From Escherichia phage vB_EcoP_phi419: DNA of 60,662 nucleotides. Where the stretch lies: the sequence record PV189407.1. One strand, given 5' to 3'. Made by a program: the position numbers. Each line of letters starts with the position of its first letter. Positions within the stretch are counted from its first letter, which is position 1. This document shows, piece by piece, positions 36,001-42,000 of the stretch.

Positions 36001-39000
36001 GCACAAACCTGACTCCAATTTGAGCAAGGCTATGTGCCATCTCGATACTCGTTCTTAATTCAACAGGAGATGCTTTGTGCATACAGCCCCTCGTTTATTA
36101 TTTATCTCTTCAGCCAGCCGCTGTGCTTTCAGTGGATTTCGGATAACAGAAAGACCGGGAAATACCCAGCCTCGCTTTGTAACGGAGTAGACGAAAGTGA
36201 TCGCGCCTACCCGGATATTATCGTGAGGATGCTTCATCGCCATTGCTCCCCAAATACAAAACCAATTTCAGCCAGTGCCTCGTCCATTTTTTCGATGAAC
36301 TCCGGCACCATCTCGTCAAAACTCGCCATGTACTTTTCATCCCGCTCAACCACGACATAATGCAGTCCTTCACGCTTCATACGCGGGTCATAGTTGGCAA
36401 AGTACCAGGCATCTTTTCGCGTCACCCACATGCTGTACTGCACCTGGGCCAGGTAAGCCGATTTTATGGCCTCGAAACCACCGAGCCGGAATTTCATGAA
36501 ATCCCGGGAGGTAAACGGGCATTTCAGTTCAAGGCCGTTGCCGTCACTGCATAAACCATCGGGAGAGCAGGCTGTACGCATACTTTCGTCGCGATAGATA
36601 ATCGGGGATTCAGTAACATTCACGCCGGAGGTGAACTCAAACAGGACTCTGGCGTCGTTCTCGTATTGTTTTCCCCAGGCCAGTGCTTTGGCATTAACTT
36701 CCGGAGCCACACCGGTGCAAACCTCAGCAAGCAGGGTGTGGAAGTAGGACATTTTCATGTCAGGCCATTTCTTTCCTGAGCGGGGTTTTGCTATCACGTT
36801 GTGAACTTCTGAAGCTGTAATGACGCCGAGCCGTAATTTGTGCCACGCATCATCCCCCTGTTCGACAGCTCTCACGTCGATCCCGGTACGCTGCAGGATA
36901 ATGTCCGGTGTCATGCAGCCACCTTCTGTTCAGAGGCTTTCTGTTTCAGGAATCCAAGAGCTTTCACTGCTTCGGCCTGTGTCAGTTCTGACGATGCGCG
37001 AATGTCGCGGCGAAATATCTGGGAACAGAGCGGCAATAAGTCGTCATCCCATGTTTTGTCCAGGGCAATCAGCAGAGTGTTAATCTCCTGCATGGTTTCA
37101 TCGTTAACCGGAGTGATGTCGCGTTCCGGCTGACGTTCTGCAGTGTATGCGGTATTTTCGACAATGCGCTCGGCTTCATCCTTGTCATAGATACCAGCAA
37201 ATCCGAAGGCGAGACGGGCACACTGAATCATGGCTTTATGCCGTAACATCCGTTTGGGATGCGACTGCCACGGTCCGGTGATTTCTCTGCCTTCGCGGGT
37301 TTTGAATGGTTCGCGGCGGCATTCATCCATCCATTCGGTAACGCAGATCGGATGATTACGGTCCTTGCGGTAAATCCGGCATGTACAGGATTCATTGTCC
37401 TGCTCAAAGTCCATGCCATCAAACTGCTGGTTTTCATTGATGATACGGGACCAGCCATCAACGCCCACCACCGGAACGATGCCGTTCTGCTTATCAGGAA
37501 AGGCGTAAATTTCTTTCGTCCACGGATTAAGACCGTACTGGTTGGCGACGATCAGCAATGCGATGAACTGCGCATCGCTGGCATCACCTTTAAATGCCGT
37601 CTGGCGAAGAGTGGTGATCAGTTCCTGTGGGTCGACAGAATCCATGCCGACACGTTCAGCCAGCTTCCCTGCCAGCGTTGCGAGTGCTGTACTCATCCGT
37701 TTTATACCTCTGAATCAATATCAACCTGATGGTGAGCAATGGTTTCAACCATGTACCGGATGTGTTCTGCCATGCGCTCCTGAAACTCAACATCGTCATC
37801 AAACGCACGGGTAATGGCTTTTTTGCTGGCCCCGTGGCGTTGCAAATGATCGATGCATAGCGATTCAAACAGGTGCTGGGGCAGGCCTTTTTCCATGTCG
37901 TCTGCCAGTTCTGCCTCTTTCTCTTCACGGGCGATCTGCTGGTAGTGACGCGCCCAGCTCTGAGCCTCAAGACGATCCTGAATGTAATAAGCGTTCATGG
38001 CTGAACTCCTGAAAATGGCTGTGAAAATATCGCCCGCGAAATGCCAGGCTGATTAGGAAAACAGGAAATGGGGTTAGTGAATGCTTTTGCTTGATCTCAG
38101 TTTCAGCATTAATATCCATTTTTTATAAGCGTCGACAGCTTCACGAAACATCTTTTCATCGCCAATAAAAGTGGCGATAGTGAATTTAGTCTGGATAGCC
38201 ATAAGTGTTTGATCCATTTTTTGGGACTCCTGGCTGATTAAGTATGTCGATAAGGCGTTTCCATCCGTCACGTAATTTACGGGTGATTCGTTCAAGTAAA
38301 GATTCGGAAGGGCAGCCAGCAACAGGCCACCCTGCAATGGCATATTGCATGGTGTGCTCCTTATTTATACATAACGAAAACGCCTCGAGTGAAGCGTTAT
38401 TGGTATGCATATAAAAAGGCCCTCACACTGGAGGGCAAAGAAGATTTCCAATAATCAGAACAAGTCGGCTCCTGTTTGGTTACGAGCGACATTGCTCCGT
38501 GTATTCACTCGTTGGAATGAATACACAGTGCTTATTCGTACTAATAAAACACCCAGTTTTCTGTTTCTTGGTTGTGTCCAAAGTTATATTCAATATCTGG
38601 TGTTGATGTATCAATATTCTTCATCCCATCAACAAGAGTTGATACAACAGCCAAATCTTGTTTTATTCTCATTAAATGGTATTTCTTCCGGCGCAATAAA
38701 CTTTCAATAGCAAGTTTCTTCGTTGGGAATGCAAAAGATCTTTCTGCATTTTTTGCTACTTTCTTAATTGCATATCTATTTCTCCTTTGTTTCCATTCCT
38801 GTAACCACTGATTTGGTGCTGGTTTAAAATTAACAATCCAATGCGCAGGAACCAACCATGCATAATGCTCTGTCTGATGAAAAGCTATATATTGAAGTGC
38901 GAATATTTTTATCCCATCTTCTTCAACTGTCGCCTGGAATCTCCAGAAAACAGGCATTCCATCATGTTCAGTTTCTGATTCAGGAAAAGGTACGCTCCAT

Positions 39001-42000
39001 GATTTTGTCATATATCACCTCAAATAAGTGGTTTGCTGCCTAATTTCATTTTCTGGCGACCAACACAAGTCATCTTGCCGTCAGTTGTTTTGATTTCCGG
39101 TAGCCTGCCGCGTAAAGAGCTACGTTTGGAAGACATACACCAGTTTCTGGTTGCTTATGTCCAAACTCATTCGCGTACACAATGGCCGCTCGCTCCAGAT
39201 TGCGTCTGTATTCTTTCTGTTGCCAGATCACGTCCTGTGCCATGAACTTAATTGGCTTAGCGTCTTCTATGCGCTCAGGCGTTTCGTGAGTACCTTTAGC
39301 CTGAATCTGCGCTCTGCTTAGAGTAGGGCGGTGTAATACTTCTGAACTTATTGCTTCTTCGCGGGCCAGCACGCCGTTAGCTAATGCCTTTGCCTTTAAA
39401 CGCTCACGACGACGAGAACGTGAATTGCCTTTGAACTGAGTTCTGCGTGTCATATAGACCTCCTGATGAACTTTGGTGGTGTGGTAGGTGGGAGACCCAT
39501 TTCGACCTACTTCAATTCGGCAATAGTCCCGCAGGCCTCGCCGCTTTACGTGCGACATATTCCCGTCCATGAACCCTTCACCACACCCCAAAGTTCACTT
39601 TGGTTATTGCGCTTTGTCAGCGCCGTAGATTCATATTCGAATCGTTGTATATTCACCGCCCTGGTGAGTAATGCGTCCTGCTGATGACGATAATAATGAA
39701 CCAATAGTTCGACATTATCAAGAACTATTGGTACGAATTTTGGTGATTTATTAACTCTACGAAGTATGATTCTGATATATAAGGAAATTTATTTTTGAAA
39801 ATGTGGCTGATGAAGGTTATGCGGCAGGGATCATAACTGCATGGTTTAGCGAGTTACATCAATAAATACAATTGGTTATGTTTTTTAGGTGGGGGGATCG
39901 TGAGGCAAAGAAAACCCGGCGCTGAGGCCGGGCTAGATTTTAAAGTATTTATCTTTTAGAGATGTAGATGTAAAACTTTTCGCCTTTGAAAATTTTTTGT
40001 CATCAGAAGGGCTTATGAACTCATCTTTTTTGTAGGGAACCGCTAATGCTGCATCACGTCTGCGAGGCAGCTTGCTTACTTCCTCGCGCTTTTTCATGAT
40101 CAGTTATCCTTTAATAACCTATACAGTTTTGTAGGGGTACATCCTGAGGATATTGTTAAGTTCGTAGCACGCCTTTTCCGCCCATCATCGTATAAACGAA
40201 AACCAGTAGTAGACGAATTTTCTGCGTCAAAAACTATAGACAGTATAGCGTCCCCAGACTTTTTTTGCCATTCGCATGTGCCGTTAGTTGGTTTCGTCAT
40301 CTGTAGACGCCAGTCAAGAACGCCATCACTTATAGCTGAGAGATCGTTTAGTACATCTAGTACGGATTGATATCTTTCATTTGGATCTACATGAATGCAT
40401 TTGTTCACTATTGTTATTAATTTTTTATGTATATGGGGAGGATACTCTTTTAATGGATAGCAGCCATTAATTATCGACTCTCTGAGTTGTTCAATCGTGC
40501 TAAATGCAGATCTTTCTCTTTCAAAATTATCATGTCCAACACACATTCTATATATGGTTAATCCTGCCTGATATATGTCATATGTGAAATTATAATCATT
40601 TGTTGATAAAGAAAAATATTCCGGTGGCACATGAAAATGATATCCAAACTCAGGCGCAGCTCTCGATTCCTCATTGACTAACTGAGATAATCCAAAGTCA
40701 GATAGCATGGCCTCATTTCTGTTTGATATCATAATGTTATTAGGTTTTATATCAAAATGCATAAGACCTTTTGAGTGTATATGATAAAGTCCACTTAAAA
40801 ATTGAATGGAATACCGTATTATCTCCCTGCTTGTAAGATTATTTTTTTTCATTAATTGGTTTAGCGAACCATTATGATAAAATGGCATGGCTATATAGAT
40901 ATTGCTCTCACATTGAGCAGCATACTGAACTTGCACAATATTTGGATGTGCATGTTTATAGAGAAGCCTTGCTTCATTAAAGTAGTCGTCGTGGTTAGTG
41001 TTTTCTTTTTTTTCTATTTCTTTAATCACCAAGTCATGAGCTAGGTGTCTGTCATGAGCCAGATATACTTTTGAAAAACAACCCTGTTCTTCTAGATCAC
41101 TAATCCATTCGAATTCTACATCAGCTCTTTTGTATGGAGTTAGCATCCCCTTACCTCCGCAGATAGTGCAGCCAAAACAGCTTCATTTGTTTCAGTTGTA
41201 AAACCAGAATTATCGATTCCATTTATATTGCGGTGTGACTTCAATATTTCTTTATACTCGATCTCTGTTAGGTTCAATGATGATTTCATGCCAGATTTTC
41301 TAATAGTGTAATATTTTCTTACATCACTGCTTGAAAATGCTTCTTGAATAACAGCTTCTATATAAAGGCGGTCAATGCTAAGATTATCAGAGTTTGATTC
41401 AGTAACGCGTATGGCAGCTAATTCAACATTATATAAATTAAGAATGTCGAGGATGTTATTTCTCACATACTTTAATTTTTCTGGTGTGTCTAAGGTCGAA
41501 GGTATTTTAATAACATCAACACATTTGAGTGCAGACTCATTAGTGCAATATACAACAAAAGATGTAACTTTGGGCGCCGCTCTAACACCTAGTATTCTCA
41601 TTTTTTATATCCTATTTTAGAATCAGGCCGCATCTCTGCGACCATCCATCATCCAAACGTCTCTTCACTCATCCGAAGAAGCAGCAATCCGGGTCAGCAC
41701 GCACAAGCTCAAGCGCATCAGTCAGCGAAAGTTCAGTACTGTACTGATGCCATTTCATATCCTTCCGCATCCAATAGATTTTCCATCTATCCAGAGAACG
41801 TATGTACTTGATTCTTGCTGATGGCAGGATGTTTGTTTCACCTGGATTGCCCTGCCACACGGGGCGCTGTTCGCCGATATCTATCGTTTGGTCATTGATG
41901 CTATAAACAATATCCAGTTCATTGCGGATATGTTCAGGCGGCCTTATGCTTTCAATGAATTGGTGAACTTCTTTTTTTACTGCTTGATATTCAAGGTCAT

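Follow-up and report, generated by a model that had tools for sequence, protein, structure and literature searches.

A conserved 156-residue protein of the leftward early operon in Escherichia phage vB_EcoP_phi419, Shiga-toxin phages and HK97

In phage lambda, the interval between N and cIII of the leftward (pL) operon holds the sieB-orf28-ral segment. In Escherichia phage vB_EcoP_phi419, the corresponding interval holds a gene for a protein of 156 amino acids, which raises the question of what this gene is and what its product may do. A preliminary description, made from the sequence alone, regarded it as an unrecognised, AT-rich moron with a good ribosome-binding site, placed where lambda carries ral and sieB-type functions and belonging to no assignable family. 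Here, we consider the gene, its operon and its relatives within and beyond the window, which is the whole 60,662-nucleotide stretch of record PV189407.1. The positions of the features are collected in Table 1.

Table 1. Features of the leftward operon from the pL-like promoter to cIII, in positions of the window.
Feature	Position	Strand	Description
pL-like promoter	39693..39721	minus	TTGATA, 17 nt, CATTAT; sits in an inverted-repeat operator
nutL region	39609..39686	minus	sequence; position of the nutL annotated in 933W
Antiterminator gene N, H-19B/933W/HK97 type	39070..39453	minus	ORF; annotated in 933W, phage 86 and HK97
Spacer from N to the 156-aa gene, 58 bp	39012..39069	minus	no terminator-like hairpin, no promoter-like site
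Ribosome-binding site GAGGTG and spacer	39012..39024	minus	directly 5' of the ATG, read from the sequence
156-aa gene	38541..39011	minus	ATG-started ORF; equals 933W L0079 and phage 86 orf57
Terminator-like hairpin 1	38419..38436	minus	GCCCTC/GAGGGC stem, CUUUUUAUAU tail; first one 3' of the gene
Terminator-like hairpin 2	38379..38398	minus	8-bp stem, just 5' of the cIII leader
cIII thermoregulator RNA	38305..38363
cIII	38186..38350

The start codon is preceded by GAGGTGATATATG, in which a GAGG Shine-Dalgarno stands about 6 nt before the ATG, in agreement with the good ribosome-binding site described earlier. The gene is flanked by N and cIII, a layout confirmed by the cIII thermoregulator RNA, and an Rfam scan found no RNA family within the gene itself. 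Its GC content is 0.359 (GC3 0.274) in a window of 0.493, well under the range of 0.419-0.520 in the red, kil and cIII genes, as had been claimed (exo 0.517, bet 0.520, gam 0.502, cIII 0.455, kil 0.419; N 0.490). The enterobacterial homologs likewise lie 6-10 GC points under their flanks in all contexts. The encoded protein has a mass of 18.6 kDa and a pI of 9.07 and, by its computed physico-chemistry, is soluble and basic, with a basic centre and two acidic ends.

The gene is already catalogued and has long been annotated as a hypothetical protein in Shiga-toxin phages and HK97. Its product is 100% identical to L0079 of 933W (a hypothetical protein in record AF125520) and orf57 of phage 86 and 99.4% identical to gp45 of HK97, and the same gene follows N in these phages, in phi24B (vb_24B_11c) and in EDL933 (EDL933_RS06705, WP_000167595.1). 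The protein was found in 598 of 5426 complete E. coli genomes (~11%), with every annotation reading 'hypothetical protein'. The label 'unrecognised' should accordingly be amended. Literature searches returned no paper for L0079, vb_24B_11c, the GenBank/RefSeq accessions or the PHROG identifiers, and for HK97 gp45 only unrelated gp45 proteins. Silas et al. described orf184, a trigger of gop-beta-cII that shares its accessory region with ral. The 156-aa gene is not orf184, which is an unrelated protein of 107 aa (AFM76385.1), and the peptide encoded by the gene does not occur in the supplement text of either version of that study.

The protein matches the PHROG 1636 HMM over its full length (E 2.7e-112, residues 1-156 on positions 1-156 of a 156-position profile). 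The earlier statement that no family could be assigned thus holds for Pfam, NCBIfam, PADLOC and the PDB, but not for PHROG. PHROG 1636 and the related PHROGs 13631, 25384 and 28215 are all labelled 'unknown function', and membership is silent on function because these clusters are uncharacterised. An exhaustive profile search delineated a phage-borne superfamily of proteins of 125-165 aa, and the alignment of 76 of these proteins is conserved over the full length down to about 20% identity; 75 of the 76 match PHROG 1636 and 66 match PHROG 13631. Apparent domain fusions were rejected, since the long matches of P0066 and P0080 are repeat or junk sequences and P0051 carries only a Cys-rich N-terminal extension. 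Homologs down to 55% identity share an identical start and the full length, and dN/dS is 0.13-0.24 in close pairs (in distant pairs dS is saturated and dN is 0.2-0.34), values which indicate that the 156-aa gene is under purifying selection. Conservation across the superfamily is confined to structural residues and some ten basic positions, without a catalytic-looking set. The broad alignment contains no conserved stretch.

Searches of Pfam, NCBIfam and PADLOC with the single protein gave chance-level matches only, among the PADLOC-DB v2 defence models a single one (Cas1_II, E 0.018). None of the 76 superfamily members matched Pfam, where no signal of Ral/Lar, ArdA, Ocr or ArdB/KlcA was seen, and neither single-sequence nor profile searches of the PDB found a match. 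When the 76-sequence profile was compared by hhalign with lambda Ral, lambda SieB and Ea10/DUF2528, the probabilities were 0.1%, 0.6% and 0.2%, respectively.

The surroundings of the gene define its place in the operon. N, whose Shine-Dalgarno and ATG are read at 39453, lies directly upstream in one operon; the spacer between the two genes is devoid of the signals that would separate them, and the region 39005-39075 folds no better than shuffled sequences (z +0.49), which implies co-transcription with N. The pL-like promoter was the only promoter-like site in a sequence scan of 38000-40200, and the nutL region contains the boxB hairpin GCGCTGACAAAGCGC at 39623-39609. On the other side, the 123 bp immediately 3' of the gene (38531-38409) match the lambda ral-ea10 spacer at 96.7% identity and are followed by a block that corresponds to lambda cIII/kil/gam. 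These adjoining sequences show that the gene exactly replaces the lambda sieB-orf28-ral segment, and the earlier placement in the ral/sieB slot proves precise. The gene ea10/ssb (DUF2528), which in 933W, phi24B and lambda lies between the terminator region and cIII, is absent from this window and from phage 86, phi315 and HK97.

Two terminator-like hairpins follow the gene. The first lies within the 123-bp block and has a dG of -10.7 kcal/mol, which is not better than shuffles (z -0.77), whereas the second has a dG of -15.9 kcal/mol and a z of -4.2 versus shuffles; the HK97 record annotates a putative terminator after gp45. Both lie in lambda-shared sequence and would therefore be part of the operon backbone rather than of an inserted cassette. 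They may be lambda tL2a and tL2b, terminators that carry no annotation in the lambda records consulted. The block common to HK97 extends over 1.3 kb (39686->38370) and runs from nutL through N and the 156-aa gene to the terminator hairpins. nutL, N and the 156-aa gene form one transcription and mosaic module.

The expression of the identical gene in EDL933 is in line with this arrangement. After SOS induction with ciprofloxacin, its mRNA rose 66.7-fold, as did that of N, and the protein was found by mass spectrometry and accumulated after induction, whereas the neighbouring stk, which is expressed in the lysogen and is equally AT-rich, was not induced (PMC11125564 S1 Table). Because it is induced with N, unlike stk, the gene is a pL early gene and not a lysogen-expressed moron, a term taken here strictly as a cassette that brings its own promoter and terminator and is active in the prophage; of the moron proposal the deviant GC content stands, while the gene has no promoter-like site of its own. 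Between cIII and N, the leftward operon contains a genuine early gene that is translated and non-core, as its ATG start, homologs, dN/dS and detection in the EDL933 proteome attest.

Structure prediction, which the preliminary description had proposed as a check, gave a confident model. AlphaFold reached a pLDDT of 95.9 with the 76-sequence superfamily alignment, while with 20 close homologs only the pLDDT was 59.5 and the model unusable. The predicted fold combines a long sheet of three strands with short helices, two short strands, a helix of 33 residues and a tail that is ordered. No solved structure in the PDB matched it, anti-restriction proteins included, and comparison with BFVD returned uncharacterised phage proteins only. 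No transmembrane segment was found (highest 19-residue Kyte-Doolittle mean 0.56, GRAVY -0.59). A DNA mimic of the Ocr or ArdA type was rejected on the basic pI and the lack of a Pfam or PDB fold match. The protein resembles a small basic binder rather than an enzyme or an exclusion protein of the membrane, and among the closest known systems are the SH3/chromo/Tudor-like small beta-barrel binders (PWWP, the MRG15/Eaf3 chromo domains, PipX).

We tentatively favour an early-lytic protein that would bind nucleic acid or an acidic host partner stoichiometrically. The gene is switched on with N at prophage induction and is presumably silent in the lysogen, and the protein may act within minutes of the start of lytic growth, in host takeover or counter-defence. 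A stoichiometric binder is the most likely mode of action because the conserved residues are structural and basic and do not form a catalytic-looking set. Takeover or counter-defence is the most likely purpose because the N-cIII locus is a variable accessory locus and C5 DNA methyltransferases of phages recur near distant relatives (six contexts), from which we infer the counter-defence step. A narrower proposal, which we consider unlikely, makes the gene the enterobacterial member of a widespread superfamily of early phage proteins that has its own fold; its product would counter a DNA-targeting host defence by binding nucleic acid, not by mimicry, and would replace Ral functionally in Stx phages and HK97. 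The same basic, non-catalytic conservation would also suit a DNA- or RNA-binding factor that serves the phage itself, in recombination, excision/integration directionality, replication or the tuning of early transcription, and not against host defence. Such a role, possible though rather improbable, is consistent with relatives that in several prophages lie immediately 5' of xis/AlpA-int, adjoin ParB-like and RusA-like genes in Bas81/NX263, or lie near RecE/YqaJ, SSB or RdgC genes elsewhere, and with the joint movement of the gene and nutL-N in HK97 and 933W. However, the position of the gene is variable, its distribution is patchy, it is absent from lambda, and no constant adjacent partner was found across the contexts compared; these features suit a dispensable accessory gene more than one that takes part in a core process.

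The replaced lambda genes suggest two further roles. Like lambda ral, the gene is an early, non-essential accessory gene between N and cIII, and it is expressed together with N, at the head of the pL transcript; an analogue of Ral that early on relieves the infecting or induced genome of restriction (for example, by type I R-M) would agree with the exact slot, with the known anti-R-M content of this accessory locus and with the methyltransferases near relatives. This role is nonetheless distinctly unlikely, given a basic protein of 156 aa in place of the 66-aa Ral or an acidic DNA mimic, without sequence or profile similarity to Ral and without a structural match to solved anti-restriction proteins; moreover, the nin region of 933W already has a Lar-family gene (frameshifted in EDL933). 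SieB of lambda and P22, which shares the genomic slot, is a membrane protein whose production in the lysogen is driven by its own promoter. For the 156-aa protein, an exclusion function exerted by the prophage is unlikely, and a moron of the sieB type, which would protect the lysogen by superinfection exclusion or abortive infection, is very improbable: the slot, the AT-rich, foreign-looking composition and the hairpins 3' of the gene speak for it, but the protein is soluble and unrelated to SieB by profile, PADLOC gave no match, the gene is induced with pL without a promoter-like site of its own, and relatives also occur in apparently virulent phages. The sieB-type function suggested earlier is accordingly disfavoured. 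That the reading frame is spurious or a decaying, functionless remnant is refuted; nothing but the lack of annotation spoke in its favour, and full-length conservation among 76 proteins, low dN/dS, a confident model and detection of the protein in EDL933 make it far more than a chance ORF.

As matters stand, the gene is one more catalogued 'hypothetical protein' at a locus known as variable. What is gained here is its expression class, the boundaries of its module, its superfamily, a confident structural model and the exclusion of homology to ral and sieB. The gene sits in the immediate-early transcript of Shiga-toxin-carrying phages, and its protein is made on induction. Should the protein prove to act in takeover or counter-defence, it would give phages a new protein family with a new fold, and the range of hosts open to Stx phages could be affected; if it replaces Ral, it would affect which E. 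coli strains these phages convert.

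The 156-aa gene starts with an ATG about 6 bases after a GAGG Shine–Dalgarno motif (GAGGTGATATATG) and lies between N and cIII, and the cIII thermoregulator RNA confirms the layout downstream. Its GC content is 0.359 (GC3 0.274), against 0.493 for the whole window and 0.517 for exo, 0.520 for bet, 0.502 for gam, 0.490 for N, 0.455 for cIII, and 0.419 for kil; the reading frame, the ribosome-binding site, and the low GC relative to the red/kil/cIII neighbours, as given in the preliminary description, are therefore borne out. The window represents a Shiga-toxin phage of the 933W type, and the 1.7-kb segment around the gene matches vB_EcoP_phi315 at 100%, Stx2 phage 86 at 99.4%, and 933W at 98.2% identity. 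The protein is 100% identical to L0079 of 933W and orf57 of phage 86, equals vb_24B_11c of phi24B and EDL933_RS06705 (WP_000167595.1), and is 99.4% identical to gp45 of HK97. Since all of these are annotated as "hypothetical protein", the gene, at first called unrecognised, is catalogued but uncharacterised; its DNA is found in 598 of 5426 complete E. coli genomes.

Features of the window and predicted elements of the 156-aa protein
Feature	Position	Strand	Remarks
156-aa gene	38541-39011	minus	ORF call
cIII	38186-38350		far side of the 156-aa gene from N
cIII thermoregulator RNA	38305-38363
Hairpin 2	38398-38379		terminator-like, downstream of the 156-aa gene; strongly stable, z -4.2
Hairpin 1	38436-38419		terminator-like, with U-tract, downstream of the 156-aa gene; not above shuffles
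N	39070-39453	minus	SD-preceded ATG at 39453, 127 aa
Lengthened N frame	39070-39591	minus	mechanical ORF list; 173 aa, TTG-initiated, through nutL
boxB hairpin	39623-39609		GCGCTGACAAAGCGC
pL-like promoter	39721-39693	minus	TTGATA-17-CATTAT, within inverted-repeat operator
stk and overlapping L0083 homolog	40100-41601	minus	348-aa Ser/Thr kinase, GC 0.354; 153 aa, GC 0.348
sRNA-Xcc1 match	32532-32621	minus	Rfam, 65.4 bits (gathering score 53)
isrK, C4 antisense RNA, its a1/b1 target	48836-49031	plus	Rfam
Three consecutive tRNA genes	52217-52466	plus	Met-CAT, Arg-TCG, Arg-TCT
STnc100	53872-54077	plus	Rfam
Anti-sRNA AsxR	54079-54131	minus	Rfam family named "Anti stx2 sRNA"
Long strands	residues 19-30, 33-46, 50-55		AlphaFold
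Short helices	residues 56-61, 66-74		AlphaFold
Strand	residues 83-86		AlphaFold
33-residue helix	residues 98-130		AlphaFold
Ordered C-terminal tail			AlphaFold

The pL-like promoter is the sole promoter-like site in a sequence scan of 38000-40200. The N start in the table agrees with the N annotation in 933W, phage 86, and HK97, and the longer start in the phi315 record is probably wrong. Within the 58 bp that separate N from the 156-aa gene, the scan shows no promoter-like site and folding gives no stable hairpin (z +0.49), and HK97 annotators placed a putative terminator behind gp45. From these scans and the co-induction data below, the gene is therefore read together with N, ahead of the first terminator-like structure; Rho-dependent termination may still occur.

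In EDL933 treated with ciprofloxacin, the mRNA of the gene rose 66.7-fold at 2 h, an increase equal to that of N and ea10, and the protein was up 6.2-fold by 3 h and 8.4-fold by 12 h (PMC11125564, S1 Table). Full-length Enterobacterales homologs, down to 55% identity, share its start; dN/dS is 0.13-0.24 in close pairs, and in distant pairs dN is only 0.2-0.34 while synonymous sites are saturated. The 156-aa gene is genuine and expressed, an early accessory member of the pL operon. Between cI and pL lies a second AT-rich block, made up of stk, which is as AT-rich as the 156-aa gene and located upstream of the pL-like promoter, and the L0083 homolog, labelled "RuvC-like" by the phi315 annotators. 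The stk cluster ends at the pM terminator in the 933W annotation, and the stk transcript did not change under ciprofloxacin in EDL933 (PMC11125564, S1 Table). It is this block, rather than the 156-aa gene, that behaves like a lysogen-expressed moron cluster.

HK97, a member of another tailed-phage subfamily, has a single block in common with the window (39686 to 38370, 1327 bp, 97.7%), spanning the start of nutL, N, and the 156-aa gene and ending just beyond hairpin 2. The window matches the lambda ral-ea10 spacer at 96.7% from 38531 to 38409 and has 38408 to 37686 in common with lambda cIII/kil/gam. These flanking blocks show that the gene exactly substitutes for the lambda sieB-orf28-ral segment, in agreement with the position first proposed. 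In 933W, ea10 is inserted at the point matching the 38409/38408 junction; ea10/ssb (DUF2528) is present in lambda, 933W, and phi24B and absent from the window, phage 86, and phi315, and the junction is located between hairpins 1 and 2.

Sequence searches of Pfam, NCBIfam, PADLOC, and PDB gave no match, and only PHROG 1636, of unknown function, matches the protein (2.7e-112), so the earlier statement that no family is assignable stands for named families. When 1.84 billion representatives were searched exhaustively with a profile, 87 superfamily proteins passed E<=1e-3; most are 125-165 aa long, with 20-25% identity, and reciprocal tblastn from one of them leads back to the Stx-phage gene, covering 95% of its length. 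None of the 76 aligned members has a Pfam domain, and all fall in PHROGs of unknown function, and the named matches in a 5.8-billion-protein collection are "hypothetical protein" in every case. The AlphaFold model is poor with the close-homolog alignment (pLDDT 59.5); with the superfamily alignment, structure prediction, as the preliminary description had advised, yields a confident fold (pLDDT 95.9, pTM 0.83). In BFVD, 14 structural matches at E<=1e-3, from Erwinia, Achromobacter, Delftia, Rhizobium, Sinorhizobium, Tenacibaculum, and Cellulophaga phages, are all uncharacterised. The gene belongs to a widespread phage superfamily without a solved structural relative.

No neighbour gene is constant across the superfamily contexts. 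The enterobacterial subfamily immediately precedes xis-int in Pectobacterium and Brenneria prophages, and its gene opens a small operon with a ParB-like and a RusA-like gene in the phages Bas81 (E. coli) and NX263 (Salmonella), which are taken to be virulent (no integrase is annotated in the examined stretches). In Pantoea myovirus LIET2, in phages of Pseudomonas and Vibrio, and in marine gammaproteobacterial prophages, distant members occupy early regions. Enterobacterial copies are 6-10 GC points under their flanks in every context, and distant members are near theirs. A C5 DNA methyltransferase (PF00145) lies 0.35-2.2 kb from distant members, in the same early operon, in six contexts (loci L006, L017, L019, L021, L022, and L024); this proximity could simply reflect how often orphan methylases of this kind occur in early-left operons.

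Elsewhere in the window, the RNA at 48836-49031 is a P1/P7-type C4 immunity-like module within a lambdoid Stx phage, and the sRNA-Xcc1 match lies several kb from the red genes, towards lower coordinates.

Lysogens produce SieB, a membrane protein, whereas the 156-aa protein has no membrane segment and is induced with pL; its solubility and induction disfavour both a sieB-type role and the strict moron label, two suggestions of the preliminary description, and its family profile scores a probability of less than 1% against each of SieB, Ral, and Ea10. Early restriction alleviation in the manner of Ral would fit by analogy in position and timing, but there is no homology to Ral. Silas et al. regard the ral locus as an accessory region with counter-defence content; the sequence of the 156-aa gene does not appear in their supplement text, and orf184, which they studied at that locus, encodes an unrelated 107-aa protein and is ruled out as its equivalent. 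A Lar-family restriction-alleviation gene in the 933W nin region of EDL933 (locus L025, 24670-24907) is frameshifted.

The protein has a pI of 9.07, with a net charge of +13 over residues 66-117 and acidic N- and C-terminal ends. Conserved across the superfamily are hydrophobic core residues, G33, T47, A101, about ten basic positions (R24, K75, K83, K84, K87, R92, K98, R108, K109, and K117), and one acidic residue, E46, which is Q in the subfamily of the 156-aa protein. Because basic and structural residues are conserved with a single acidic one, the pattern is the signature of a binding protein rather than an enzyme, and the candidate ligand is a polyanion, either an acidic protein or nucleic acid. 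Tentatively, and at somewhat less than even odds, the best-supported mechanism is that the protein would bind nucleic acid or a host factor stoichiometrically at an early stage of lytic growth, most probably to counter defences or to take over the host; its chief competitor is an accessory role in DNA or RNA processes internal to the phage.
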